In this document: in pieces, positions 6,165-47,489 of the stretch
Layout: the number at the start of each line of letters is the position of its first letter
How positions within the stretch are numbered: the stretch's first letter is position 1
Assembly: GCA_942491275.1 (NCBI GenBank)
Contig: CALNZI010000004.1
Location: 3,305-67,304, forward strand
DNA length: 64,000 nucleotides
DNA from: Minisyncoccota bacterium
Lineage (GTDB): Bacteria; Patescibacteriota; Minisyncoccia; Phycocordibacterales; UBA9973
Direction of reading: 5' to 3'
Notes under the pieces: model-generated
Databases searched by the model: none
What the model was told of the DNA's origin: nothing
What the model saw: the letters and a program-made list of their open reading frames with translations, nothing else
Translations under genes and position numbers: made by a program

Positions 6165-8560
6165 GTGAAGGAAAAAATAAAACCTAAAAAAGAAAAATTA
6201 GTTCTTCTTGATGCCCATGCAATTATTCATCGGGCTTACCATGCTTTGCCAGAATTTATGAATTCTAAAGGAGAACCAACTGGAGCGATTTATGGAATAG
6301 CTACCATGCTTTTTAAGATTATTACAGAATTAAAACCTGATTATATTATTGCTTGTTATGACTTACCTAAAAAAACTTTTAGACATGAAGCCTATAGTGA
6401 TTATAAAGCTGGGAGAGCTAAGTCCGACGATGCTCTTGTTTCTCAATTAATAAAATCTAGAGATTTCTTTAAAGCTCTATCTATTAAAATATACGAAGCC
6501 GAAGGCTTTGAGGCCGATGATCTTCTTGGAACTATTGCTAAACAAGTTACAAAAAAGAAGAAAAATATTGATGTGGTTATCGCTTCTGGAGATATGGATA
6601 CTCTTCAATTGGTTGATGATAAAAATGTTTTTGTTTATACCCTGAAGAAAGGAATTAATGACACAATTTTATATGATGAAAAGGCCGTAGTAGACCGTTT
6701 TAAATTTAAACCAGAGTATTTACCGGATTATAAAGGGTTGAGAGGGGACCCTTCCGATAATATTATTGGTATTAAGGGAATTGGAGAAAAAACAGCTACT
6801 ATTTTAATTTCAGAGTTTGGTTCATTGGAAAAGATGTATAAGGTTCTTAAAAAAGACCCGGAGTATATTTCTAAACTAGGAATTACTCCTCGCGTTTTAA
6901 ATCTTTTGAAAGAAGGAGAGGAAGAAGCTTTATTTTCTAAAACCCTAGCAACGATTCGTCGCGACGTACCCATTACTTTCAAAATTCCTAAAGATGTTTG
7001 GGAAAAAGAAGTTAAAGTTGAAGAGGTGGCGGACTTTTTTAAAGAGATGGAGTTTAGAAGTTTACAGGGAAGATTTTTAAATTTGTTTAAAAAAGAAGAA
7101 GGTAACCATTTAGACAATTTTACAGAAGAAAAAGAAGTTGAATATAAAGAGGAAGACAAAATTAAAATAACCAAAGCCCAGATTGCCTATTGGCTTTTGA
7201 ATTCAGAAAAAACCAATCCAGATTTAGAGGAAGTCGTTGATTATCAAGGAAGTAGTAATTTAGACGAATCATTGGAATTATTAGAAAAAGAGGTTGAAAA
7301 ACAAGGCTTAAATTACGTTTACAAAGATATCGAAATTCCAATTATTCCCATAATTAAAAAAATGGAAGAAAATGGTATTTTAGTGGATGCTAAATATTTA
7401 AATAAATTATCAAAGAAATATCACACACTTTTATCTAAACTAGAAAAAGACATTTGGGAATTAACAGAAAGTGAATTCAATATAAATTCACCGAAACAAT
7501 TAAGCGAGATTCTTTTGAAAGATTACAGCTTTCATCCAAAGGGATTAAAAAAAATCCAGGAGGTACACTTTCCACTCGAGAAAGTGAATTAGAAAAATTA
7601 AAAGACATACATCCAGTTATTGGAAAAATTTTAGAATATCGTGAGTTACAAAAACTGCTTTCAACTTACATTGATACAATTCCAAATGCTATTCATGAGG
7701 ATGGTCGTTTGCATGCAAATTTTATTCAAACAGGCACAACCACAGGACGCTTCTCTTCAAATAATCCTAATTTACAAAATATTCCAACCAAAACAGAAAA
7801 AGGGAGAAATATTAGGACTGCTTTTGTCGCGCCAGAAGGAAGTGTTTTGGTTTCTTTCGATTATTCACAAATAGAACTACGAGTAGCAGCTCTAATGTGT
7901 CAAGATTCATTTTTTATAGAAGTTTTTAACAAAAGGGAGGACGTTCATTCGGCTGTGGCCATGAAAGTTTTTGGTGTTAAAGAAGAAGAAGTGACTCCGG
8001 ATATGCGTCGTCGTGCCAAGGTTATTAACTTTGGTATTTTATACGGCATGGGCGTGAATGCTTTGAAAGATAATTTAGGCACCGACAGGAAAGAAGCTCA
8101 AATTTTTTATGATAATTATTTTGCTCAGTTTCCAACCATCGCTGCTTATTTGGAATCCATTAAGATTTTTGCTAAAGAGAAAGGATATACTTTAACTCTT
8201 TTTGGAAGGAAAAGATATTTTCCTGGAATTAAATCACCACTTCCTTTTCTTAGAGCAATGGCGGAAAGAATGGCTATTAATGCTCCCATTCAGGGGACAG
8301 CTGCTGATATAATAAAGATTAGCATGAAAAAAGTTGATGAAGAACTAAGGAACGCTAAAATACAAGATGAAGTAAAACTTGTTTTACAGGTCCACGATGA
8401 GTTAATTTTTGAAATAAAAAAAGATAGGGTTGATCAGGCTGTGGAAATTATCAAAAAAGCTATGAAAAATGTTATGCCTATTGAGTTTTTGAATGACCTT
8501 GAGTCAGTTCCTTTTGAAGTTTCCTTTGGAATTGGTAAAAATTGGGGAGAGTTAAAATAG
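6165..8560 (+). CDS. polA: DNA polymerase I (5'-3' exonuclease plus polymerase domains), reading frame interrupted by one -1 shift at an A8 run
   Basis: ORF 6165..7592 has the 5'-nuclease motifs (LLDAHAIIHRAYHAL, GIKGIGEKTA). After the a8 run at 7547..7554 the -1 frame reads KNPGGTLSTRESELEKLKDIHPVIGKILEYRELQKLLSTYID...HANFIQTGTTTGRFSSNNPNLQNIP and continues to 8560 (YSQIELRV, QVHDEL). Confidence 0.9.
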
Positions 8561-10476: not shown

Positions 10477-10872
10477 TTATTTATTTAAAAAGGTGATAGT
10501 CAGCTGCAATATTGTAGCAAATGAAACCCATAGTAAATAGGGTATTTGAATATAGCTGATCCATTTAGCATAGGGGAAGATGGCTACCATTGCCCAAACA
10601 AGAGTAACAAAAACAAGGATAATGTCAATTGAGGCTAAAAAGTTGTTTTTTAATTTAAATTGTAAGTATGTAAAGATTAAATTAAAGAAAATGTTAAGGA
10701 TGAAGGGTAGTGCTATTGCGAAAGATATTTTCCCTTTGAATAGCATGTGAAAAACCTTACCAAAAGAAATGATTATTAATACATATAAAACAGACCATAC
10801 TGGTCCAAATAACCAAGAAGGCGGCGCCCAGGTGGGTTTAATTAATTGTAAATACCAATTTGAATTATCCAT
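10477..10872 (-). CDS. tspO: TspO/MBR-family tryptophan-rich membrane protein (short form)
   Basis: WYLQLIKPTWAPPSWLFGPVWSVLYVLI and W-rich TM helices. At 131 aa it is shorter than typical. Confidence 0.7.
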   Translation of the reverse strand: MDNSNWYLQLIKPTWAPPSWLFGPVWSVLYVLIIISFGKVFHMLFKGKISFAIALPFILNIFFNLIFTYLQFKLKNNFLASIDIILVFVTLVWAMVAIFPYAKWISYIQIPYLLWVSFATILQLTITFLNK

Positions 10873-17428: not shown

Positions 17429-17465
17429 AAGAAATTATGTTATAATAGTTCCACAACTAAATATT

Positions 17466-17656
17466 AATTATCAAGAGTATGGAGATCCTCCTTCGTATAA
17501 ACTACGGACGGAGAGCGAGCACTGGCTCGATGACCCATCAGCAACCCTCATTTATACGAGTAGGTGCTAAATCCAGCCCGATAAAGTGAAAACTTTATTC
17601 AGGAAAGATAAATGGAAGTAGTTTATCTTTCCCCATTATGGGGATTTTTTATTTTC
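17466..17656 (+). promoter_or_regulatory. SAM-I (S-box) riboswitch with intrinsic terminator
   Basis: aTTATCAAGAG...GGAGAGcgagcACTGGCTCGATGAcCCatCAGCAACC...AGGTGCTAAATCCAGC...GAAAGATAAat matches the S-box core, with an extra hairpin inserted in P2. Terminator ccccattatgggg+T-run at 17631..17656. tgttataat -10 box at 17438..17446. Confidence 0.85.
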
Positions 17657-17667
17657 AAATTTACAAA

Positions 17668-17775
17668 ATGCTTAAAAAAACACCACAACAGAAAGAAGAT
17701 ACAGTCATGGTTTTTGTCATGATGTGGCCCATTTGGGCGGCAGGCCTAGGTCTTTTGTTTTATATAGTTTTTTAA
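17668..17775 (+). CDS. 35-aa Met-rich hydrophobic micro-ORF directly downstream of the SAM riboswitch
   Basis: MLKKTPQQKEDTVMVFVMMWPIWAAGLGLLFYIVF, translated by hand. Starts 12 nt after the riboswitch terminator T-run. One predicted TM helix. Confidence 0.35.
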   Translation: MLKKTPQQKEDTVMVFVMMWPIWAAGLGLLFYIVF

Positions 17776-23980: not shown

Positions 23981-25096
23981 TTATTTGTAAATTTCGATGT
24001 TTTCCAAAATGTAATCATCGTTTTCTTCGCATACGATTCCAACGCTATATCTAGCACGTGTAAGTCCAACATAAAACTTAGCTCTAGCCTCGTCTGAGAA
24101 CTTATGATCATGATTCTTCATCCATTTTATCATATCACTCGTTGGATAGATAAGAACTCGATCAAATGATAACCCTTTTGACAATCCAAGATTATTTACA
24201 GTATATTTTAAATTAATATTTTTTGTTAAAGAATTCCATCTTAATTGAACTGGATTGTACGTCTCTAGGTATTTCTTAATATTAGTATTCTTAACTAAAA
24301 ATATTCCATCATGACCAGTAACACTATCTTGTGCAGAAAAACATGGTTTAAAAGTGCTGTATAGCTTGTTTGAGTACACACATATTTTCTCATTACATCT
24401 GTGTGAGTGAGAAAGTGTATGATTATCTATTTCAAAATTAATATTAGAACATTTGTCCTTTATAAACTCTTCTAATAATCCATTTCGGTATTTTCTGTAT
24501 TTACTTTCATTGTGAGTCAAATAAGTTACTTGTCTTGGGTCACAAACCATAATTAGATTCACTGGGCTCTCTGATAGCAGTCGTATAATATCAAGATCAT
24601 ATCCAGCTAAATCTTGACTTTCATCAATAAAGATATTTGGGTAGATATTAATAAGACGATCAATAATCTTCCCTTCAGATTTTTCATTAATCTTAATAAC
24701 AAGTTTTGAAAGTTTGTCTGAGTATATCTTTTTATTGTCTGTAAAATAGTATTGATTAAAGTTGCTTTCTCCCCAAAATACAGGGAAACCCTTTGGCGTT
24801 TTGTATCTAAAGCCAGATTGCTTATTTACTAGTAACATTCCATTAACATGAAAATCAAACAAAACACTTTGGTAAGGTTTAATACCGTGTTTTATCAATA
24901 GAGAAAACCATGTTTGAATTGTGACGTTTTTTGGTATATAGCCATTTATTTCAATAAATTTACTCCTAATTTCTTGCTCATTAGCCTCTGTAAATGTTGT
25001 AATTAGTACAGGATCATCTAAAATTTCAAGAGCCTCTTTAACAAGAAGTGTTGTTTTACCAGACCCGGCTGCAGATATTATCAGCTTATTTCCCAT
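23981..25096 (-). CDS. short UvrD/PcrA-like SF1 helicase (GajB-like partner of the OLD nuclease)
   Basis: Walker A AAGSGKTT, Walker B/DExx IFIDESQDL, VCDPRQ and C-terminal VGLTRARYSVGIV. Only 371 aa. Separated by 4 nt from the upstream OLD gene. Confidence 0.75.
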   Translation of the reverse strand: MGNKLIISAAGSGKTTLLVKEALEILDDPVLITTFTEANEQEIRSKFIEINGYIPKNVTIQTWFSLLIKHGIKPYQSVLFDFHVNGMLLVNKQSGFRYKTPKGFPVFWGESNFNQYYFTDNKKIYSDKLSKLVIKINEKSEGKIIDRLINIYPNIFIDESQDLAGYDLDIIRLLSESPVNLIMVCDPRQVTYLTHNESKYRKYRNGLLEEFIKDKCSNINFEIDNHTLSHSHRCNEKICVYSNKLYSTFKPCFSAQDSVTGHDGIFLVKNTNIKKYLETYNPVQLRWNSLTKNINLKYTVNNLGLSKGLSFDRVLIYPTSDMIKWMKNHDHKFSDEARAKFYVGLTRARYSVGIVCEENDDYILENIEIYK

Positions 25097-25100
25097 AGTT

Positions 25101-26738
25101 TTAAATTACATCCGAAATATAACTGGGATAATTAATTTTAATTTCGGAATTAAATATTTTTAAGGCACATTTAGTTTTGTTTTGATACATGTATTGAAGA
25201 ATCTCATTGTCATTTACAAACACTGTTTCAAACACCTCATTTAAAGTTTTAAGAGAATTTGCCTTTAGTATTTTAGGTTCAAGAGTATTATAATTGAATG
25301 CTCTCCCGTTAATAAGTAAATCTCCCTCATCAATTGTATAATCAAAGGAAATATTGATATGTGGTTTGGCTTTTTTCCCAATGAAATTTCCGTATTTCTT
25401 TTTGATTGCTCCTATACTCCAATCAGTATCTGTAATAACAATCGTAGGTTTTTCAATTTTATCAGCAATTTCAAGAAATCGTAAAAACGAAGTACCAACA
25501 GAGATTACGTCAACACCGTTTTCAATTGGGAGCTTCCCGTCGTATTTATCAGCGTATGCTTTTTGTACAATAAGTTCATCAGAATCACCTTCAACTAGTA
25601 TTGCTTGTTTACATAGTATTAACCTTAAGGTGTCATAACCTGATAATTTTTGAAAATATTGAAAAGTTTCTTCAGTTAGTTCAGACAATCTAGTAGTTTG
25701 AGGATTGTTAAGTAAAATTAGACTATCTAAGCCTAATTTATTTGCCACAAAACTACTATGAGTAGATATGATAATCTGCTTATTTTGCCCCCCTGTCTTT
25801 AGCTCATTTATTAAGTAATTCAATCTTGAATGAGACAAATGATTCTCTGGTTCTTCAATAAGTAAAACGTTAGCTTCTTGAATTTTTTTATGATTTAAAG
25901 CTAATTTGGTTTTTATAATAGATTGTTCTCCTTTTCCTAAATGATGAAATGGTATTTCATCTAAGTATGTAACTAGTGAATTTTCCCATGCATTTTTAGA
26001 AGAAAGTTCCACGGAGAGTTCTACTTTTTTATTTGATATTTTTGAGTCTGTTTGTATTTTCTCATTGATTGCTTTAATTGCCTCTTCTTGCATGAAAAAA
26101 TCTTTCATCTTACGATGTGCTTGAGAGACATTTATTACTTCTTCGGGTTTCAAAAAATCTTTAATTATTCTGCTGATATATATATCTGAACCATTTTGAT
26201 TACGATTATTTACAGAATCAATTAATGCTGATTTTATAGGAATTAACCTAGGAGTAATTTTTTCATCTCTTGCGAAGGACTCCCAATAATAATGATAGTA
26301 TTCTATTGGTAATGAGCTTATACTTCCCTCCTTCAATAAAAACTCGTACTCTTCTTTATACTTTTCATCAAATTTAATTTGGAAGGTAAGTCCTAATAAA
26401 TCAGATTGTTCACTATTCTTATTTCCTCTAAGAAAATGAGGAGAATCTCCTGAGAAGTAAACCTCGATGCTAATAGATGGTGGAAGGACACCTTGACCCT
26501 CCTTTATGTTTTTAAGATACTCTGCAACTATCTGGTTGTTAAATATACATTGATTTAATTCATTGTAAAAATATCTACCATTAAACCAGCCAGATAATGC
26601 AAGATGGATCGCTTCAATAATTGTTGATTTTCCAGCTTCATTATCACCAGCAATAATATTTAACCCTTTCTCTAAAGAAAGGCTAAATTCGTCGTAGAAA
26701 CACTTAAAGTTTTTGATTTTAATTTTCTCAATATGCAT
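25101..26738 (-). CDS. OLD-family ATP-dependent endonuclease (ABC-type ATPase plus TOPRIM), GajA-like
   Basis: Walker A GDNEAGKST, signature-like GKGEQS, Walker B LLIEEPENHLSHS and STHS. TOPRIM motifs ILVEGDSDE and VITDTD. Confidence 0.85.
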   Translation of the reverse strand: MHIEKIKIKNFKCFYDEFSLSLEKGLNIIAGDNEAGKSTIIEAIHLALSGWFNGRYFYNELNQCIFNNQIVAEYLKNIKEGQGVLPPSISIEVYFSGDSPHFLRGNKNSEQSDLLGLTFQIKFDEKYKEEYEFLLKEGSISSLPIEYYHYYWESFARDEKITPRLIPIKSALIDSVNNRNQNGSDIYISRIIKDFLKPEEVINVSQAHRKMKDFFMQEEAIKAINEKIQTDSKISNKKVELSVELSSKNAWENSLVTYLDEIPFHHLGKGEQSIIKTKLALNHKKIQEANVLLIEEPENHLSHSRLNYLINELKTGGQNKQIIISTHSSFVANKLGLDSLILLNNPQTTRLSELTEETFQYFQKLSGYDTLRLILCKQAILVEGDSDELIVQKAYADKYDGKLPIENGVDVISVGTSFLRFLEIADKIEKPTIVITDTDWSIGAIKKKYGNFIGKKAKPHINISFDYTIDEGDLLINGRAFNYNTLEPKILKANSLKTLNEVFETVFVNDNEILQYMYQNKTKCALKIFNSEIKINYPSYISDVI

Positions 26739-27448: not shown

Positions 27449-27477
27449 AAAAAACCTCAGCGCGTGAGGTTTTTTTT
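27449..27477. terminator. bidirectional rho-independent terminator
   Basis: aaaaaacctca-gcgcg-tgaggtttttttt between convergent genes. Confidence 0.75.
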
Positions 27478-27949
27478 AGAAGCCGATTTTTTCCATGAAG
27501 AGCATGGATTGAGATTCTTTTAGTTCTATTTTAGGGATTACTTTTAGGAGGGATTCTTTTATTTGGGGAAGCATATTGTTTGGGATAGGAAGGGTATAGG
27601 TTGGAAGGAAGTGTTTATTTGTTTCAATTAAAAGTTTACTTACTCCATCTCTTTTTTTAATATCAAAACCTTTTATTCTTGACCACTCGTATTTATCTTT
27701 ATTCATTGTTAAACCTTCGGTTTCAATTGAGAAAATAATTTCTTCTGGATGTCTAACAGAAAACAACATTAAGGCGGAGCCGGAAATAACTATAAAAATA
27801 GCAAACAGGTAACTCTTTGTCCAAAGGGCAATGATACAGATAACAAGAGTAATTAAACCCATTGTCCAATACCAGTCGGTGGACCGTTCTTTATGGTTGT
27901 ATTCTAGAGCACTCCACTTTATTTTATCTATGGTAACTTCTTCTGACAT
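27476..27949 (-). CDS. hypothetical two-TM membrane protein
   Basis: WYWTMGLITLVICIIALW and YLFAIFIVISGSALMLF, then a soluble C-terminal domain. Confidence 0.5.
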   Translation of the reverse strand: MSEEVTIDKIKWSALEYNHKERSTDWYWTMGLITLVICIIALWTKSYLFAIFIVISGSALMLFSVRHPEEIIFSIETEGLTMNKDKYEWSRIKGFDIKKRDGVSKLLIETNKHFLPTYTLPIPNNMLPQIKESLLKVIPKIELKESQSMLFMEKIGF

Positions 27950-28048
27950 GTATATATATTATAGCAATACTTATTTTATAAAGAAAGGGAATTATTATCA
28001 TTATCTATTTAAGATTGACAGGAATCTATGTTTTGTTAGTATTAAGAT

Positions 28049-28114
28049 ATGAGAAATATTCAGAAAATATACTCAAAATTGACTTGGTGGAACGCTTATT
28101 TATGTAAGCGGTAG
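28049..28114 (+). CDS. trpL: 21-codon trp leader peptide with tandem Trp codons
   Basis: atg aga aat att cag aaa ata tac tca aaa ttg act TGG TGG aac gct tat tta tgt aag cgg tag = MRNIQKIYSKLTWWNAYLCKR. TTGACA at 28015..28020 lies upstream. The peptide overlaps attenuator segments 1 and 2. Confidence 0.7.
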   Translation: MRNIQKIYSKLTWWNAYLCKR

Positions 28115-28141
28115 TTTTTGTATATTCATTTTTGATTGTTA

Positions 28142-28169
28142 CACCGCTTGCAGAAGCGGCTTTTTATTT
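28142..28169 (+). terminator. attenuator terminator (segments 3:4) upstream of trpB
   Basis: ccgctt-GCAG-aagcgg followed by cttttta ttt. Segment 3 accgctt (28143..28149) is also perfectly complementary to segment 2 aagcggt (28106..28112). Confidence 0.7.
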
Positions 28170-28319
28170 GTTTGATTAAATATTATTTATGAAAAAATTT
28201 ACTTTTTACAACCTATCAACATTCTTCTGGCGAGATTACAAATCGTTTATTTTTACAAACTTAACTTAAATTGCGTCGCGTTTTAATGGACATTACGCGA
28301 TACGATTTTGCAAAATCGT

Positions 28320-29522
28320 ATGAAAAACAATATAAAAAATTATAAAGACACACCAAACAAAGAAGGATATTTTGGTAAATATGGTGGCCAGATTATTCCA
28401 CCACAATTAAAATCAATTTTTGATGAAATTGATGTTAAATATAGAGAAATTAAAAATGACCCTAACTTTTTAGAAGAGTATAACAACTTGTTGAAAAATT
28501 ACGTGGGTAGGCCTTCTCCTTTATATTTTGCAAAAAATTTAACAAAAAAACTAGGTGGAGCAAAAATATACCTAAAAAGAGAAGATCTTAATCACACCGG
28601 TGCCCATAAAATAAATCACACTTTAGGAGAAGCCCTTTTGGCTAAAAAAATGGGAAAGAAAAAATTACTTGCTGAAACTGGAGCGGGACAACACGGAGTT
28701 GCTTTAGCAACGGCGGCAGCACTTGTAGGGATTGAATGTGAAATACATATGGGAGCCATTGATATAAAAAAACAAAAACCTAATGTAATCAGGATGAAGT
28801 TGTTGGGGGCTAAAGTTGTGGAAGTTAAATCGGGCGGGTGTTGTTTAAAAGATGCAGTAGATAGTGCTTTTGGAGCGTTTCTTGAAGATCCAAAGAATAT
28901 TTTTTTTGGGATTGGTTCTGTCGTAGGGCCGCACCCTTTTCCAATGATAGTAAGAGACTTTCAATCTATTGTTGGCAAGGAAACTAAAGAACAAATAATG
29001 GAACAAGAAAATAAATTACCAGACTATCTAATAGCTTGTGTCGGTGGCGGGTCCAATGCCATTGGTTTATTCCACGAATTCTTAAATAATGATGTAAAAA
29101 TGATTGGAGTAGAACCGAGTGGTAAAAGTTTTAAAGCAGGAGATCATGCTGCTACTTTAACATTAGGTAAGCCAGGAGAAATTCACGGAATGTTTACCTA
29201 TCTATTACAAGATGGCAAAGGGGCCCCTCTGCCTGTCCATTCAATTGCTTCTGGTTTGGATTATCCTGGAGTGGGACCAATTCATTCTCAATTAAAAGAT
29301 GAAGATAGGGTAGAGTATATTTCTATTAATGATAATGAAGCCCTATCAGCCTTTAAAGAATTATCTAAAGTTGAAGGAATCATTCCAGCGTTGGAGAGTT
29401 CTCATGCCATTGCCCATGTAATTAAAATTGCTCCAAAACTAAGTAAAGATAAAATTATAATTATTAATTTGTCTGGCAGGGGAGATAAGGATATTGATTA
29501 CGTGGAAAATTTGATTGATTAA
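28320..29522 (+). CDS. trpB: tryptophan synthase beta chain (no trpA or other trp genes nearby)
   Basis: [23 protein letters not shown] (PLP lysine), GAGQHG and GGGSNAIG. The ATG at 28320 is preferred over the TTG at 28308. Confidence 0.9.
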
Positions 29523-29559
29523 TAAAAATTAACCAAATTTTTTAAAATAAACCCCTCCA

Positions 29560-32211
29560 TTAATAATGGAGGGGTTTATTTTTATAGAGGAAGTATTTTA
29601 TAACTTCAGCTAGAGCTATATTTAGAAGAACAAAAATAAGAGCAAATCCTAACCAAGAAAGAGGAAGAGGGTGGATAGATAATAATGTTCGTATTGGTGG
29701 GAAATATAAAGCAGAGACCATCATAACCATTCCGATAAGGACTCCTCCTGTCATATACTTGTTGGAGAAAGGTGAATAGGACCAAATTGGACGATAGAAA
29801 TTTCGTAGAGAGAATGCCAGAAGAAGAGAATATAGGCCGAAGGCTGTAAAGATAAAAGTTTGTAGTATTTTGGGGTCGTATCCTAGAAAAGAAAGTAAGG
29901 CGTAGAGACCAAATAAAATAATTGAAGTAACTACACCAATAATAATAATGAATATTCTCACTTCCTTATCAAAAATATTTCCGGAGGTTCTTTTGAGAAC
30001 ATCATCTTTATTTTTTTCAAAAGCGAAGGCTATGGCTGGGAAACTATCGGAGAAGAAATTAACCCAAAGTATTTGAAGAGCGGTAAGAGGAAGAGGTATT
30101 CCCAATAGAATACTTCCTCCAATAAGTAGCACCTCATCAAGAGTACTAGATAGAAGATAGATAACAGTTTTTTTAATATTTCCCATAATTCGGCGACCTT
30201 CTTCAATGGCTGAAATAATTGTAGTAAAATTATCATCCAGTAAAACTAAATCAGCTACGTCTTTGGCCACATCGGTTCCAGAGCCCAGGGCTACCCCCAC
30301 GTCGGCTTCTTTAAGGGCCGGAGCATCATTGACCCCATCTCCAGTCATGGCTACTATATGACCCATTCTTTTAAATGCTTGAGCAATACGAATTTTATCT
30401 TGAGGAGTCACTCGAGCATAGATTGAAATTTCCATTAATCTTTCGTCAAGTTCTTCGTCTGTTAATTCACGGACTTGTTTTCCCGTGAGCAATCTCTTTT
30501 CACTGGAATTCAAGCCAACAGCTTTGGATATTGCTAGAGCTGTTCCAGGATGATCTCCTGTAACCATTACTATATATGTTCCAAAGTCCTTAATCTTTTT
30601 CATAACGGCAGCAGCTTCAGCTCGAGGAGGATCAAAGAAAGAAATTATTCCAGCCCAGGTTAGGGAGTGTTCATTTTCGCTATCACTAATATATCCAACA
30701 GCCAAAACTCTTTCTCCTTGTAGGGCTATTTTGTTAATTTGTTCACCCACACGAATGCGCTCCTCTTTAGAAAGAGTACTTCTTTCAAGTAATACTTCGG
30801 GAGCTCCCATGTATATTTCAATATTATCTGTTTCTTGAGAAAGGATAGGAGACAGTGCTGTAGGGATATTTTTTATTTTATAAATGGAGTGTTTTTTTAA
30901 TGAGTCAAATGGGATAAATTCAATTGCCTCGGTTTCTTTTTTTAATAGTCGGACATCAATATTGTGATCGAAAGCATAGGACACTAAAGATGACTCCAGA
31001 GAGTTTCCTTTAATAATAGGATTTTCATTTCCGTTTTCTTGGGAAATAAGAGTTCGTGTGTTAATTAAAGCTAATAGAAGTAATCTCCTTTGTTCTTCTG
31101 ATAGGTCATCTATGCTTTTTTCTTTTTTTAATATTGCTTTGTTTGGTGTATAAGGTTCTATTCTGCGAACAGTTAATTTTTTTTCTGTGAGGGTTCCAGT
31201 TTTGTCTGTCATTATTACATCAACGGAACCTAGGGTTTCAGCTGCAATCAGTCGACGGACTATTCCATTTCTTTTTGCTAATCTACTTACACCAACAGAT
31301 AATACTGCTGTTAAGGCGATGGGGAGCCCTTCAGGTATGGAACCAACTGCCACAGCTACAACTATAAAGAACATATCGAGGATTGGAATTCCTTTAGTTA
31401 TTCCAATCATAAATAATACTGCCACTAGGATGCCTAGCACCAAGGTAAGCATCCAGGAGAATTTATAAATTGATTTTTGTAGAGGTGTTTTAGTATCTTT
31501 TGTTTCTGAAATTAATTGAGCAATGAGACCTATTTCACTTTTTTTACCGGTGGCACAGATAATAGCATCACATAATCCTTGTAATACCAGAGTTCCACCG
31601 TAAAGCATATTTGTTCTGTCTGGGAGCTCTGTTTCTTCGGGGAGAATATTTTTTTGTTTATTTACCGGGAGAGACTCTCCTGTTAAAATTGATTCCTCGG
31701 TTTGAAAATTATTAGAAGAGATAATAAGTGCATCTGCGGGGACTCGATTTCCTCCTTCTAATCTAATCATATCTCCAACAACCAACTCTTCGGCATCTAT
31801 TTCTTTTTCTTGTCCGTCTCTGATTACACGAATTCTTTCTTTAACATAACTTCTTAGATGTTTAACGGAGACTTCAGCTTTATACTCTTGATAGAAGCCC
31901 AGGGCGACATTTATTCCCACAGCTAATCCAATGATAAGAGCATCTCCACCTTTTTCTAATAATAGAGAAACTATTAAAGCTATTAATAATATAAAAATAA
32001 GAGGGCTCGTAAATTGTCTTAGAAAAATTTTCCAAATGGTTGAATTGGAATCCTTCGATATGGAGTTTGGTCCATGAATTTTTTTCCTTTGTTGAGCTTC
32101 TTTATCACTGAGCCCTCGGTTAGAAGTTTTAAGTAATTTAAAAATTGCTTCTGTGGACATGTGCCACCAAGAAGCAGAGGGGAGGATTTGAAGCGTTGTT
32201 TTTTCTTTCAT
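29560..32211 (-). CDS. P-type cation-transporting ATPase (P2-type, Ca2+/Mg2+-like)
   Basis: TGES, DKTGTLT (MTDKTGTLTEKK), TGDHPGTA and TGDGVNDAPALKEADVG. About 10 TM segments. Confidence 0.9.
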   Translation of the reverse strand: MKEKTTLQILPSASWWHMSTEAIFKLLKTSNRGLSDKEAQQRKKIHGPNSISKDSNSTIWKIFLRQFTSPLIFILLIALIVSLLLEKGGDALIIGLAVGINVALGFYQEYKAEVSVKHLRSYVKERIRVIRDGQEKEIDAEELVVGDMIRLEGGNRVPADALIISSNNFQTEESILTGESLPVNKQKNILPEETELPDRTNMLYGGTLVLQGLCDAIICATGKKSEIGLIAQLISETKDTKTPLQKSIYKFSWMLTLVLGILVAVLFMIGITKGIPILDMFFIVVAVAVGSIPEGLPIALTAVLSVGVSRLAKRNGIVRRLIAAETLGSVDVIMTDKTGTLTEKKLTVRRIEPYTPNKAILKKEKSIDDLSEEQRRLLLLALINTRTLISQENGNENPIIKGNSLESSLVSYAFDHNIDVRLLKKETEAIEFIPFDSLKKHSIYKIKNIPTALSPILSQETDNIEIYMGAPEVLLERSTLSKEERIRVGEQINKIALQGERVLAVGYISDSENEHSLTWAGIISFFDPPRAEAAAVMKKIKDFGTYIVMVTGDHPGTALAISKAVGLNSSEKRLLTGKQVRELTDEELDERLMEISIYARVTPQDKIRIAQAFKRMGHIVAMTGDGVNDAPALKEADVGVALGSGTDVAKDVADLVLLDDNFTTIISAIEEGRRIMGNIKKTVIYLLSSTLDEVLLIGGSILLGIPLPLTALQILWVNFFSDSFPAIAFAFEKNKDDVLKRTSGNIFDKEVRIFIIIIGVVTSIILFGLYALLSFLGYDPKILQTFIFTAFGLYSLLLAFSLRNFYRPIWSYSPFSNKYMTGGVLIGMVMMVSALYFPPIRTLLSIHPLPLSWLGFALIFVLLNIALAEVIKYFLYKNKPLHY

Positions 32212-41379: not shown

Positions 41380-41451
41380 GCCCCTGTAGTTAAATGGATA
41401 TAACTGCGGACTTCTAAGCCGTTATTCGAGGTTCGATTCCTCGCGGGGGCA
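41380..41451 (+). tRNA. tRNA-Arg (UCU)
   Basis: GCCCCTGTAGTTAAATGGATATAACTGCGGACTTCTAAGCCGTTATTCGAGGTTCGATTCCTCGCGGGGGCA. Anticodon loop CTTCTAA. Ends 1 nt before the ATG at 41453. Confidence 0.85.
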
Positions 41452-41452
41452 C

Positions 41453-42229
41453 ATGAAAATAAAAATTCTATTTGAAGATAAAGACCTATTGGTCATAAAT
41501 AAACCCGCAGGTGTTTCTGTCCATTCGGATGGAAAAAGCAAGGAAAAAACTATTGCTGACTGGGTTTTAGAAAATTATCCAAAAACTAAAAAAGTTGGAG
41601 AACCTTTTGATTTGGAGGTTAAGGGAGGGGAAAATATAAAAATTTATCGTCCAGGAATTGTCCATCGCTTAGATAGAGAAACTTCCGGGGTTTTGATTAT
41701 TGCTAAAAATCAGAAAACTTTCGAGTTTGTGAAAAAACAATTTGCTGATCGTGTAGTTCAAAAAGTTTATCATTCTTTTGTCTATGGATCAGTTTCAGAT
41801 CCCCAAGCCTCTCTGGCTACAAATAAAAGGGGAGTGATAAAAGCAGCTATGGGACGTTCTCCCAATGATATTAGAATGTGGACAGCTGGACGAGGAGCAC
41901 GTGAACCACTACGGGAAGCTACAACAGAATATATTATTTTAGAAAAATTTAAATTAAAAAACGGAAAAGAATTTTCTTATCTGGAAATTTATCCAAAAAC
42001 TGGGAGAACTCACCAGATTAGAGTTCATATGAGATATATTAATCATCCGGTGGTGTCTGATAATCTTTATGGAGGATCAAATAAACCTGCTCTTGGAATG
42101 AAGCGCCTAGCTCTTCATGCTAAGATTATTACTTTTAAATTACCAAGCGGTCAGCCGAAAACAGTGGAAGCTCCGTTTCCAAAAGACTTTCAAGAAGTTA
42201 AAGATAAATATTTAAAAATAGATAAATAG
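41453..42229 (+). CDS. RluA/RluD-family pseudouridine synthase (lacks an S4 domain)
   Basis: [28 protein letters not shown] and GRTHQIRVH. Confidence 0.9.
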
Positions 42230-42803: not shown

Positions 42804-42885
42804 GCCCGGGTGGTGAAATTGGTAGACACGCTAGTATGAGGTACTAGTGCCGCAAGGTTTGGAGGTTCAAATCCTCTCCCGGGCA
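42804..42885 (+). tRNA. tRNA-Leu (GAG), class II
   Basis: GCCCGGGTGGTGAAATTGGTAGACACGCTAGTATGAGGTACTAGTGCCGCAAGGTTTGGAGGTTCAAATCCTCTCCCGGGCA. Ends 1 nt before the ATG at 42887. Confidence 0.85.
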
Positions 42886-42886
42886 C

Positions 42887-43453
42887 ATGGATATATTTTA
42901 TATTTTAGAATGGTTTTTAGTAATTATTTCTTTCATCACTTTTGGAGTGCTTTCTTTGTGGATTTTTAGTAGTTTTAATAAAAAGACTCGCTTTACTCAA
43001 ACTCCTAGTTCTGTTTTTAAGTATATTTCTAAAAGTTTAGAAATTAAAGAGGGTAGTGCGGTTTATCATTTAGGTTGTGGTGACGGGCGAGTATTGTTTA
43101 ATTTAGCAAAGCAAAAGCCTAAAGCGGAATTTATAGGAGTTGAAGATAATAAGTTTTTTTTAGGACTAGCTTTTTTACATAATTGGTGGAATAAAATAAA
43201 AAAGAAGGAAAAAATTGAAATTATAAATAGAGATTTTTTTAATCAAGATTTATCTAAAGCAACACACATCTTTGTTTATTTGTATCCTAACTTTATGGAT
43301 GATCTGTTATCAAAATTTGATAAAGAATTAAGCCCAGGAACTCGTTTAGTTTCTTTAAATTTTCATTTTACTTCGAAGCAACCAATTGCTGAAATCAGTC
43401 TCCCTAAAAAAAGTTATCAACGTAATCATCGAATTTACGTTTATGAATTTTAA
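42887..43453 (+). CDS. class I SAM-dependent methyltransferase with N-terminal TM helix
   Basis: VYHLGCGDGRVLFNLA (motif I) and GVEDN. N-terminal TM helix WFLVIISFITFGVLSLWIF. Confidence 0.7.
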   Translation: MDIFYILEWFLVIISFITFGVLSLWIFSSFNKKTRFTQTPSSVFKYISKSLEIKEGSAVYHLGCGDGRVLFNLAKQKPKAEFIGVEDNKFFLGLAFLHNWWNKIKKKEKIEIINRDFFNQDLSKATHIFVYLYPNFMDDLLSKFDKELSPGTRLVSLNFHFTSKQPIAEISLPKKSYQRNHRIYVYEF

Positions 43454-45974: not shown

Positions 45975-47489
45975 ATGAAAATAGCTTATGCAATTACTAG
46001 ATTCTTTTTTAAATATAGGTTGAAAAAGATAGAGAAAATGGGTAAAAATCCCATGGAAACCCAGGGTAAAGTTCTTAGGGGTCTTATTCGAAAAGCAAAA
46101 AACACAGAATGGGGCAAATTGTATAAATATGAGTCTATTTCGAGTATCGCCGAGTTTCAAAAAAATGTTCCAGTTTCTTCTTATGAAGATATTTTCCCTT
46201 TTATATCTAGAATGATGGAAGGAGAAAAAAATATTCTTTGGCCGGGTTTAATTCCTTATTTTTCTAAGTCTTCTGGAACGACGGAGACTAGAAGTAAATT
46301 TATTCCAGTTTCAAAAAATTCTTTAAAAGATTGTAATTTTAGAGCAGGGAAGGATGAGATTGTTTTTTATATAAAAAATAATCCGGAAGCTAAAATTTTT
46401 AAAGGGAAAAATCTTGTTGTTGCTGGTAGTTTAAATAAAATTAAAGACAGCCCTAAAATTTTTTGTGGAGATGTTTCAGCTATTATAACCAAAAATTTAC
46501 CTTTTTGGGCTGAATACTTTAGGACACCTTCTTTAGAAACAGCACTATTGGTTGATTATGAAGAAAAAATAGAAAGATTAGCAGAAGAATCAAGCAAAGA
46601 AAATGTTGTAAGTCTTGCAGGTGTTCCAACTTGGGTATCTTTACTCATTAAAAAAGTTTTGGAAAAGAAAAAAGTAAAGAATATTTTTGAAGTTTGGCCA
46701 AATTTAGAAGTTTTTTTTCATGGGGCTGTTTCTTTTAGTCCTTATCAAAAACTTTTTGAAGAATTATTACCTTCCTCTAAAATGAATTATATGGAAAACT
46801 ATAATGCTTCTGAAGGATTCTTTGCAATTCAAGATGATCTATCAAAGAAAGGAGAGATGATGTTAATGTTAGACTATGGTGTTTTTTATGAATTTGTTTT
46901 AGCTGAAGATTTAAATTCAAAAGATTCAAAATTTTTAACCATAGACCAAGTAGAAATTGGGGAAAATTATGCAATAGTTATTTCTACTAATGCCGGTCTT
47001 TGGCGGTATGCTATCGGAGATACAGTTTCTTTTACCAGTCTTTATCCTCATCGGATTAAAATAACAGGACGAACAAAACATTTTATTAATGCTTTCGGGG
47101 AAGAGGTAATTATTGATAATGCAGATAATGCTATAACTGAGGCTTGTTTTGTTACTGATTCTTTAATTTCTGAATATACTGCAGCCCCTATTTTTATGGG
47201 AGACGGGAAGAAGGGAGCTCATGAATGGATTATTGAATTTGAGAAAAAACCAGAGTCCATTGATAAATTTAGAGATGTTTTAGATTTAACTTTACGTAAA
47301 ATAAATTCTGACTATGATACTAGGCGTTTTAAAGATGTTATTATAGGTGCCCCCATAATAACAGTTGTTCCTTCAGGGACTTTCTATAAATGGATGAAAT
47401 CTCGTAAAAAACTTGGTGGGCAAAACAAAGTTCCGCGACTTTCTAATACTCGTGAGTATGTTGATGAAATATTAAGATTAATTAAATAA
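45975..47489 (+). CDS. GH3-family acyl-acid amido synthetase-like protein (adenylate-forming)
   Basis: FSKSSGTTETRSKFIPVS, YNASEGFF and RYAIGDTV, as I recall for bacterial GH3 auxin-responsive-promoter family proteins. Confidence 0.8.
   Translation: MKIAYAITRFFFKYRLKKIEKMGKNPMETQGKVLRGLIRKAKNTEWGKLYKYESISSIAEFQKNVPVSSYEDIFPFISRMMEGEKNILWPGLIPYFSKSSGTTETRSKFIPVSKNSLKDCNFRAGKDEIVFYIKNNPEAKIFKGKNLVVAGSLNKIKDSPKIFCGDVSAIITKNLPFWAEYFRTPSLETALLVDYEEKIERLAEESSKENVVSLAGVPTWVSLLIKKVLEKKKVKNIFEVWPNLEVFFHGAVSFSPYQKLFEELLPSSKMNYMENYNASEGFFAIQDDLSKKGEMMLMLDYGVFYEFVLAEDLNSKDSKFLTIDQVEIGENYAIVISTNAGLWRYAIGDTVSFTSLYPHRIKITGRTKHFINAFGEEVIIDNADNAITEACFVTDSLISEYTAAPIFMGDGKKGAHEWIIEFEKKPESIDKFRDVLDLTLRKINSDYDTRRFKDVIIGAPIITVVPSGTFYKWMKSRKKLGGQNKVPRLSNTREYVDEILRLIK

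Follow-up and report, generated by a model that had tools for sequence, protein, structure and literature searches.

The stretch of DNA analyzed here, referred to below as the window, comprises 64,000 nucleotides (nt) of a Minisyncoccota bacterium (assembly GCA_942491275.1, contig CALNZI010000004.1, positions 3,305 to 67,304, forward strand). At positions 28320 to 29522 it carries trpB, the gene for the β-subunit of tryptophan synthase, preceded by a 271-nt leader that an original prediction, made from the letters alone, had interpreted as a tryptophan attenuator with a leader peptide; this leader is the subject of the present analysis. The trpB product scored 565 bits against TIGR00263 (cut-off, 392), and an exact-sequence look-up returned no identical record. 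It contains no tryptophan, which is likewise absent from 39 of 40 other proteins of the clade examined; as TrpB is free of Trp, the sole Trp codons on the whole transcript are the presumed regulatory ones, located in two short open reading frames (ORFs) of the leader, ORF1 and ORF2. The gene stands alone, as had been predicted: Pfam scans of the window ORFs of at least 90 amino acids revealed no further trp gene, orphan status thus referring to the 64-kb window rather than to the whole genome, and such scans found trpA adjoining trpB in none of the relatives examined. The gene 5' of the leader is divergent (27476 to 27949, minus strand), and trpB is monocistronic, because a bidirectional terminator separates it from a convergent gene for a P-type ATPase. 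The features of the locus are as follows.

28015 to 28042, plus strand: sigma-70-type promoter (consensus scan) with the −35 hexamer TTGACA (28015 to 28020), a 16-nt spacer, and a TG-extended −10 hexamer TAGTAT (28037 to 28042)

28049 to 28114, plus strand: leader ORF1 of 21 codons, encoding MRNIQKIYSKLTWWNAYLCKR, with the stop codon TAG at 28112 to 28114 (sequence check)

28085 to 28090, plus strand: tandem regulatory Trp codons TGG TGG, ending 2 nt short of segment 1 (sequence; relatives)

28093 to 28119, plus strand: hairpin 1:2, formed by cgctta (28093 to 28098) and taagcg (28105 to 28110), −6.8 kcal/mol, with its own T-run at 28115 to 28119 (folding, covariation)

28104 to 28151, plus strand: antiterminator 2:3, in which 28104 to 28112 pairs with 28143 to 28151 over 9 bp including one G-U (duplex folding, covariation)

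28144 to 28169, plus strand: intrinsic terminator 3:4, formed by ccgctt (28144 to 28149) and aagcgg (28154 to 28159) around gcag, −8.0 kcal/mol, followed by CTTTTTATTT (folding, covariation)

28189 to 28269, plus strand: ORF2, encoding MKKFTFYNLSTFFWRDYKSFIFTNLT, with an invariant Trp codon at 28228 to 28230 and the Arg codon CGA at 28231 to 28233 (peptide-level conservation)

28271 to 28319, plus strand: insertion of approximately 47 nt that is specific to the window and missing in relatives, with two small hairpins, the second of which (28303 to 28319) abuts the trpB start

28320 (ATG) to 29522, plus strand: trpB, TrpB1 type, 400 amino acids, no Trp residue (profile match)

29551 to 29585, no strand assigned: bidirectional terminator hairpin (aacccctcc...ggaggggtt plus T-run), common to trpB and the convergent P-type ATPase gene

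The promoter scored 10 of 12, with TG, in a consensus scan that was run without guidance from the original prediction, and the same scan independently reported both sites at which a hairpin is followed by a T-run. The −35 box, the 21-codon ORF, and the two adjacent Trp codons lie exactly where they had been placed, as do the complementary segments 1 to 4 and the stop codon, which overlaps the end of segment 2; the antiterminator is present as well and turned out to be longer than described, with 9 bp in the duplex and 10 bp in the constrained fold. With Trp accounting for 1.39% of the window codons, two adjacent W residues would arise by chance in a 21-residue peptide with a probability of about 0.004. 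The core of the antiterminator is formed by aagcggt (28106 to 28112), which is complementary to accgctt (28143 to 28149). The expectation that helix 2:3 competes with helix 3:4 was borne out by folding, with −10.2 kcal/mol for the 2:3 duplex and −15.4 kcal/mol for the local fold running from segment 2 through segment 3 including the loop, versus −8.0 kcal/mol for 3:4. In constrained predictions of the minimum free energy (MFE) structure, the window kept hairpin 1:2 and the 6-bp terminator when no ribosome was present, and a ribosome placed at the stop codon likewise left the terminator intact (6 bp). Masking by a ribosome with its A site on the second TGG reduced the terminator to 0 bp and produced a 10-bp antiterminator instead, i.e., the structure flips once the WW codons are covered. 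Hairpin 1:2 is the anti-antiterminator. The T-run that follows it is present in most loci; as a U-run of the transcript, it could act as a pause site synchronizing ribosome and polymerase or as an early terminator of untranslated transcripts. This U-run had been overlooked in the original prediction, as had the leaderless geometry and the second conserved ORF described below; with ORF2 missing, the earlier model covered only the first half of the 271-nt leader.

The ATG of ORF1 at 28049 is located 6 nt past the −10 hexamer, a distance that leaves no room for a 5' untranslated region (UTR) or a Shine-Dalgarno (SD) site. Of 25 relatives, 15 have a spacing of exactly 6 nt and 22 one of 4 to 8 nt, whereas only 45 of 1468 control ATGs had a comparable promoter-like site. 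From the 6-nt geometry and the SD-free norm of the genome, ORF1 is most likely translated from a leaderless mRNA, its ATG probably lying at the predicted transcription start; the conservation of this geometry and the genomic norm are also consistent with translation of ORF1 in step with transcription. As to that norm, an SD-like motif precedes just 2 of 43 window genes, and many operon-first genes of the window have TGnTATAAT 6 to 8 nt ahead of the ATG, which implies leaderless mRNAs; examples of the SD-free, leaderless pattern are found at 10872, 15270, 27047, 29560 to 32211 (minus strand), 43476, 47765, and 57546. Internal genes of the window begin 1 to 2 nt after the preceding stop codon, implying stop-start coupling. 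A particular arrangement was observed next to two tRNA genes, tRNA-Arg and tRNA-Leu (window sites 41380 to 41455 and 42804 to 42889), where the ATGs of the ORFs at 41453 to 42229 (pseudouridine synthase) and 42887 to 43453 lie one base past the discriminator base (..gggcaC ATG); judging from this geometry, processing of the tRNA 3' end would free an effectively leaderless mRNA, a kind of tRNA punctuation.

To place the leader in a comparative context, genome and metagenome collections were scanned with the TrpB protein, yielding approximately 40 loci (designated by L numbers) whose TrpB proteins are 71 to 86% identical. Those carrying a label are nearly all metagenome-assembled genomes of Patescibacteria, i.e., from the candidate phyla radiation (CPR), comprising Gracilibacteria, Komeilibacteria, Moraniibacteria, Falkowbacteria, and Parcubacteria; a protein search added more than 100 further clusters named Paceibacterota, Pacebacteria, or Nomurabacteria. 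In most of these loci, trpB is preceded by a promoter, then a short ORF containing one or two codons for Trp, a hairpin, a hairpin with a U-tract, and usually a second small ORF. At least 25 related loci share the attenuator architecture but differ in their stem sequences, examples of segments 2 and 3 being aagcgg/ccgctt, aggcgg/ccgcct, tgggtag/ctactca, tgggcag/ctgccca, and gggtaggc/gcctgctc. In 19 loci curated for codon geometry and folding, the last Trp codon either overlaps the 5' arm of hairpin 1:2 or ends 0 to 3 nt short of this arm, and the stop codon lies within or adjoins the 3' arm. All curated relatives have one or two W codons at the regulatory position, so that the Trp codons immediately 5' of segment 1 are a retained property of the related leaders. 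The ORF1 peptides are poorly conserved save for W and the residues fixed by the stem.

A covariance model (R1) was built from an alignment of 15 sequences (A1) with the 1:2 and 3:4 pairs. It produced a single match in the 64 kb of the window, at 28077 to 28168 (73.3 bits, E ~1e-10), and it also recovered the non-seed members L096, L001, L082, L016, L083, L102, L003, L091, and L084; applied to 59 loci with more distant trpB genes, it gave nothing better than E ~0.9. The distant TrpB loci L020 to L080 and L103 to L160 (Proteobacterial, Desulfobacterota, and Spirochaete, TrpB 61 to 71% identical) form an observation of their own, in that trpA does not follow trpB and the proteins have no Trp residues; from these two properties, the whole clade may represent a stand-alone lineage of the TrpB1 type.

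Covariation was measured on a model alignment of 25 sequences (A3), with 500 shuffles and slid pairings as controls. Taking helices 1:2 and 3:4 together, 86% of the cells are paired, double-sided changes occur in 14 of 15 pairs, and the covariation of 0.44 versus 0.25 in shuffled alignments was reached by 0 of 500 shuffles; the slid controls had 29 to 51% paired cells. Specifically, double-sided changes affect 7 of 8 pairs of the first helix and all 7 pairs of the second, in which 90.7% of the cells are paired. For helix 2:3, 88% of the cells are paired, with double-sided changes in 7 of 8 pairs and a covariation of 0.42 versus 0.27; neither the covariation nor the percentage of paired cells was reached by any of the 500 shuffles, the pair-count and type-count measures were reached by 10 and 4 of them, and the slid controls gave 22 to 50%. 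Since the alignment had not been fitted to 2:3, this is the more independent of the two results. Consistently, the mean 2:3 duplex energy is −10.6 kcal/mol when both segments come from the same locus versus −7.8 kcal/mol across loci (permutation test, 0 of 5000). All three alternative pairings are thus maintained in the relatives through compensatory changes. These data bear directly on the possibility that the hairpins of the region are merely tandem terminators of the common sort or arose by chance in AT-rich DNA, next to a fortuitous WW ORF, or that the region is controlled by protein- or tRNA-mediated antitermination of the TRAP (trp RNA-binding attenuation protein) or T-box type. Promoter- and terminator-like matches are indeed common in this AT-rich region, and the folding z-scores are unremarkable. 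However, covariation is seen in three helices that depend on one another, the W and stop codons keep their positions among relatives, and the upstream gene is divergent, so that there is nothing for the hairpins to terminate; moreover, the window holds no chain of (G/U)AG triplets, and neither a T-box nor any other Rfam family matched at E values up to 10. Judged by the comparative data, chance or tandem terminators already appear disfavored, and we regard this whole group of explanations as highly improbable.

Several observations weigh against the attenuator. In some relatives, ORF1 contains a single Trp codon only. The window terminator has a short stem of 6 bp (−8.0 kcal/mol) and an interrupted U-tract, and folding of the whole leader is unexceptional compared with shuffled sequences (z = −1.74 and −0.66), a result that may equally be counted as neutral. 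About 150 nt of leader between the terminator and trpB, including ORF2, fall outside the attenuator model, and the starts of ORF2 and trpB both lack an SD site. Finally, when the 19 curated loci were folded under constraints, a ribosome at the stop codon left the terminator intact in 18, and a ribosome at W disrupted it in 12; in the other 7 of 19, the equilibrium MFE structure retains the terminator despite the masked W codons. As the terminator is the stronger helix in these seven, a kinetic argument is needed there, namely that segment 4 has not yet been transcribed.

Taken with these reservations, every defining feature of the classical trpL type that can be tested in silico was found: a Trp-enriched leader ORF, a terminator, a mutually exclusive antiterminator, a 1:2 hairpin, and the appropriate codon geometry. 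Those of the checks named in the original prediction that can be computed all came out in its favor. Judging from these sequence comparisons, the region from 28049 to 28170 very probably represents a classical ribosome-sensing Trp attenuator in front of trpB that has been kept in many CPR bacteria with compensatory changes. The sequence elements are computed results, as are the energetics and the conservation and covariation of these elements; what we infer is leaderless translation, a ribosome coupled to polymerase, and Trp-dependent termination, which would combine in the following way. Transcription would begin at or next to the A of the ATG at 28049, giving a leaderless transcript, and a 70S ribosome would translate the 21-codon leader while polymerase transcribes the next approximately 120 nt. 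If charged tRNA-Trp is scarce, the ribosome would stall at TGG TGG (28085 to 28090) and cover segment 1; segment 2 (28104 to 28112), thus freed, would pair with segment 3 (28143 to 28151) once the latter emerges, the 3:4 terminator would not form, and polymerase would continue through ORF2 and trpB. If tRNA-Trp is plentiful, the ribosome would reach the stop codon at 28112 to 28114 and cover segment 2, so that the 3:4 hairpin with its U-tract would end transcription near 28165 to 28170. In the absence of a ribosome, 1:2 and 3:4 would both form and termination would also result, and the U-run after 1:2 may cause a pause or early termination. The product of readthrough, a Trp-free stand-alone TrpB, would make tryptophan from indole and serine, and ORF2 would add a second checkpoint on its expression.

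The attenuation mechanism itself is known; what is notable is its setting, with a modular leader and a lone TrpB devoid of Trp in a CPR genome that is SD-free and leaderless. In the literature available to the search, we found no account of attenuation in Patescibacteria or of the regulation of their trpB. Searches of Rfam at E values up to 10 over positions 27900 to 28450 gave no matching family, including RF00513, RF01692, and RF00230, and at the gathering score neither the related leaders (19 loci) nor, for Trp_leader, the window were matched. A TRAP-type leader, which would have 9 to 11 (G/U)AG triplets at 2- to 3-nt spacing, was considered and rejected, as only three isolated triplets are present and the longest chain is 1. 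The window leader is accordingly a member neither of RF00513, RF01692, or RF00230 nor of the TRAP leaders. In its organization it nevertheless resembles E. coli trpL (RF00513), with which it shares a short ORF with tandem Trp codons, four segments pairing as 1:2, 2:3, and 3:4, a terminator with a U-tract, a stop codon placed such that a terminating ribosome blocks segment 2, and the same logic. It differs from trpL in the lack of detectable homology, in a leader ORF without 5' UTR or SD site, in stems that are much shorter and richer in AU, in a hairpin 1:2 with its own U-run, in the regulation of a single trpB instead of trpEDCBA, and in the second conserved upstream ORF (uORF) that follows. 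The Bacteroid-trp motif (RF01692; PMC2864571) and the T-box (RF00230) are also cis-regulatory leaders before genes of Trp synthesis, but the window matches neither.

The original prediction had described leader-peptide attenuation as best known from Proteobacteria; it is not confined to them, having been predicted or shown in Actinobacteria, where trp attenuators include candidates upstream of trpB-first operons in C. diphtheriae (PMC1262725). In mycobacteria, leaderless short ORFs encoding poly-Cys are amino-acid-responsive attenuators (bioRxiv 10.1101/834739). The actinobacterial systems (Corynebacterium, Streptomyces, and mycobacteria) are thus comparable as classical attenuators outside the Proteobacteria and, in the mycobacterial case, as leaderless uORFs, yet they are GC-rich, belong to another phylum, and precede multigene operons, and the mycobacterial Cys uORFs are without obvious terminators. 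A closer parallel to the leaderless geometry is provided by the alphaproteobacterium Sinorhizobium meliloti, whose trpL transcript starts at the leader ATG and encodes a 14-residue peptide with a run of Trp (PMC7298713). That leaderless Trp attenuator regulates trpE(G), has no second uORF, and has documented trans functions of its RNA (rnTrpL) and peptide (peTrpL), with no known counterpart in the window leader. With this precedent, in which the leaderless trpL RNA and the 14-residue peptide act in trans (PMC7298713, PMC6614838), the unit from 28049 to 28170 could be primarily a gene for a trans-acting small RNA or small protein, control of trpB being secondary; it is equipped with a promoter and a terminator of its own, which would yield a transcript of about 120 nt. 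We consider this unlikely, given that the element is always located directly upstream of trpB in otherwise varied neighborhoods, that the ORF1 peptide is poorly conserved beyond W and the stem-fixed residues, and that there is no known target; a trans function would in any case be compatible with a role as attenuator.

The genes neighboring trpB vary from locus to locus in the relatives, from which it follows that the leader and trpB travel as a cassette. Within this cassette, the position of the attenuator can be shared with or taken by other regulators. A gene of the Trp_repressor family (PF01371) is located directly upstream of the leader and trpB in L084, L089, L017/L099, L102, and L109. 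In L089 (..QQSWWQTLFWRR) and L109 (..REMRWRDFKRWR), the C-terminal tail of the repressor bears Trp codons ahead of a hairpin and terminator, and this arrangement suggests that the ORF of the repressor also serves as the leader peptide. In L014, a divergent T-box (GGUGGCACCGCG box; positions 180 to 620; RF00230, 32 bits, E = 1.6e-5, below the Rfam gathering score of 93) with a strong terminator stands in place of ORF1. The presence of a Trp_repressor gene or a T-box at the equivalent place in relatives confirms the Trp-responsive context. Two further observations concern individual loci: in L084, a gene for a class I tRNA synthetase of the Trp/Tyr type is located right behind trpB, and L015/L098 have no attenuator but a promoter approximately 50 nt upstream of trpB that is overlapped by the perfect inverted repeat catgctat caca atagcatg, probably a repressor operator. 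Chlamydia trachomatis possesses an indole-salvage operon, trpRBA (PMC7755916). It is comparable in that a reduced genome keeps trpB, presumably for indole salvage, and in that some relatives of the window locus have an upstream Trp_repressor-family gene; by contrast, the window contains neither trpR nor trpA, and attenuation in Chlamydia proceeds via YtgR and a WWW motif rather than a leader-peptide terminator switch.

A total of 26 distinct relatives carry ORF2, and no copy was found in the distant loci. Its consensus reads [KH][FY][YI]F[YHK]N.[SAC]T[FYE].W[RQH], with Trp at codon 13 to 15 in most relatives and up to codon 18 to 19 in two. Conservation acts at the level of the peptide: the BLOSUM62 score averages 2.86 per site in frame 0 versus 0.75 and 0.99 in the other frames, the ratio of nonsynonymous to synonymous change (pN/pS) is 0.53 versus 1.28 and 0.78, all four Thr codons occur at the invariant Thr (third-position entropy, 1.96 bits), and Ser is encoded by TCA and AGY alike. 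It ends abruptly after W-[RQH], beyond which a tail of 1 to 21 codons follows. Such a pattern is typical of cis-acting nascent peptides that have a ribosome position as their functional end, not of a small protein. In L014, ORF2 (MKKYYIKIRATESWRFSINRES) is kept ahead of trpB, behind the T-box. In two loci it is fused in frame to TrpB (L019, 1914 to 3218; L161, 1201 to 2520, protein P0002) via a nonconserved linker of 19 to 24 residues, the ORF2 Trp being the sole Trp of the protein; L161 retains a leaderless ORF1, MINKNHIRTNWWSTRARG. A separate ORF2 is missing in L018, L096, and L102, which keep the ORF1 attenuator. The Trp codon of ORF2 and the trpB ATG lie 46 to 62 nt apart in 16 of 23 loci and 92 nt apart in the window, where the private insertion of about 47 nt has lengthened the distance from approximately 55 nt. 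In L011/L090, L003, L014, and L085, insertions with terminal inverted repeats, resembling miniature inverted-repeat transposable elements (MITEs) or repetitive extragenic palindromic (REP) elements, were observed inside the trpB leaders; they fall between ORF2 and trpB and, in L085, between the terminator and ORF2.

On this basis, ORF2 is most probably a separate downstream module encoding a cis-acting regulatory nascent peptide with its functional end at W-[R/Q/H]; we rank this function first and a plain second Trp-codon sensor or a ribosome relay second. Peptides such as TnaC and PepNL show stalling linked to tryptophan (PMC8429421, PMC11890864). Like these and the arginine attenuator peptide, ORF2 is a short uORF conserved in its amino acid sequence and not in its codons alone, with an essential Trp. 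It does not belong to the TnaC family, in that the W12/D16/P24 spacing is absent (no D at +4, no P before the stop); since the ORF2 stop codon lies at a variable distance, any stall would fall in elongation at W-[RQH] and not, as in TnaC, at termination on the stop codon. The core of the fungal arginine attenuator peptide is ..S-D-H-L-W-R.., which resembles ..S-T-F-F-W-R.. of ORF2, and that peptide also functions as an N-terminal fusion. Of the properties expected of an arrest peptide, selection at the peptide level ending at a defined site is apparent from the alignments, and stalling itself is putative.

Instead of or besides ORF1, ORF2 could even be the key regulator, its conserved 14-residue nascent peptide arresting at W-[R/Q/H] on a small molecule such as free tryptophan or indole and gating the passage of ribosomes or polymerase to trpB, with TnaC and the fungal arginine attenuator peptide as the nearest analogues; we rate the chances of this as somewhat short of even. 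The abrupt end of selection after W-[RQH] with its tail of variable length, the near-constant codon position of Trp and its distance to the trpB ATG, the in-frame fusions (L019, P0002/L161), and the persistence of ORF2 behind the T-box of L014, next to which another device reading tRNA-Trp charging would be superfluous, all point in this direction. Set against them are a motif that matches no known arrest peptide, the absence of ORF2 from the three loci relying on the ORF1 attenuator only, the tolerance of MITE-like insertions on both sides of ORF2, the lack of a conserved terminator or RNA switch downstream of it, and the fact that the T-box and fusion arguments rest on one and two examples, respectively.

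Alternatively, ORF2 might be a second hungry-codon sensor operating at the level of translation or RNA stability, or a relay uORF that feeds ribosomes to the SD-less trpB by termination-reinitiation, the conservation of its peptide being incidental. The restriction of Trp codons on the transcript to those of ORF1 and ORF2 would suit a sensor, and a genome without SD sites that uses leaderless starts and stop-start coupling would suit a relay. Predictions of a hairpin with a T-tract overlapping TGGCGA are weak, yet stronger than those for shuffled sequences (Mann-Whitney, p = 7e-5). Neither role, however, explains the conservation of 13 residues, including a Ser drawn from two codon families, and a stall under starvation would block the synthesis of TrpB in the in-frame fusions; we consider sensor and relay doubtful. 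A second intrinsic terminator after the ORF2 W-R, visible by eye in L005, L006, L012, and L082, was rejected as a general mechanism: the hairpin at this position is weaker in the window than in shuffles (−1.6 versus −2.1 kcal/mol), and a stability of −4 kcal/mol is attained in only about 10 of 27 loci. Also rejected was an RNA switch transmitting a stall at the ORF2 Trp to the trpB start, as masking by a ribosome at W hardly alters the accessibility of that start (mean changes in unpaired probability, +0.03 and +0.06, no more than with any upstream 28-nt mask). Pairing of the [SA]-T codons with TGGCGA as the cause of ORF2 conservation holds only in L085, L087, L088, and L100, and an internal leaderless promoter for trpB in TTATTAATT was discarded for its wrong spacing and its lack of TG and of a −35 element, similar AT-rich strings being found before other genes.

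The attenuator and the regulatory nascent peptide can be joined in a two-stage leader, in which the tRNA-Trp attenuator would be followed by an undescribed peptide of 13 to 15 residues (..F-[YH]-N-x-[SAC]-T-[FYE]-x-W-[RQH]) arresting at W-[R/Q/H] on a second signal, such as free tryptophan or indole; in some lineages, the first stage would be swapped for a T-box or joined by a TrpR-like repressor. We offer this combination tentatively, as a conjecture from sequence conservation that is rather unlikely to hold in full.

Apart from the leader and trpB, several features of the window deserve mention. A Gabija anti-phage system is encoded 1.3 kb upstream of the leader (23981 to 26738, minus strand), consisting of GajA (545 amino acids; PADLOC E = 1.5e-206) and GajB (371 amino acids; E = 5.6e-135). 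The ORF at 45975 to 47489 encodes a GH3-family protein related to auxin-amido synthetases, in which all three GH3 domains match; its presence in a small genome of the CPR-like type is unusual, and it may be linked to the metabolism of indole derivatives. DNA polymerase I is divided between two ORFs in different frames (6165 to 7592 and 7709 to 8560), separated by a gap of approximately 120 nt, with part of the polymerase domain missing, which could reflect a frameshift, a pseudogene, or an intervening element. An S-adenosylmethionine (SAM) riboswitch (RF00162, 46 bits, barely over the threshold) was detected within 17465 to 17775, with a terminator-like hairpin after it at approximately 17618 to 17650 and a 35-codon ORF (17668 to 17775; MLKKTPQQKEDTVMVFVMMWPIWAAGLGLLFYIVF) downstream of that hairpin. 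As the next large gene (17810) has its own promoter of the leaderless type, the riboswitch may control only this small membrane peptide.

Almost nothing is known about gene regulation in CPR bacteria, because most of them cannot be cultured. The leader of trpB would introduce a textbook attenuator into bacteria without SD sites, in which most mRNAs start at AUG, and the covariance model R1 can be used to annotate it across the Patescibacteria. A first module that can give way to a T-box or be joined by a TrpR-family gene amounts to a natural experiment in regulatory modularity, and ORF2 is short enough for a direct in vitro test as a new regulatory nascent peptide. If the two-stage leader were confirmed, it would define a new family of metabolite-sensing arrest peptides that is widespread in Patescibacteria and works as a uORF as well as when attached to the N terminus of TrpB, and the salvage enzyme would be made only when tryptophan is both needed and makeable. 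In either case, an attenuator guarding a lone, Trp-free TrpB points to a regulated salvage of indole from a host or the surrounding community.

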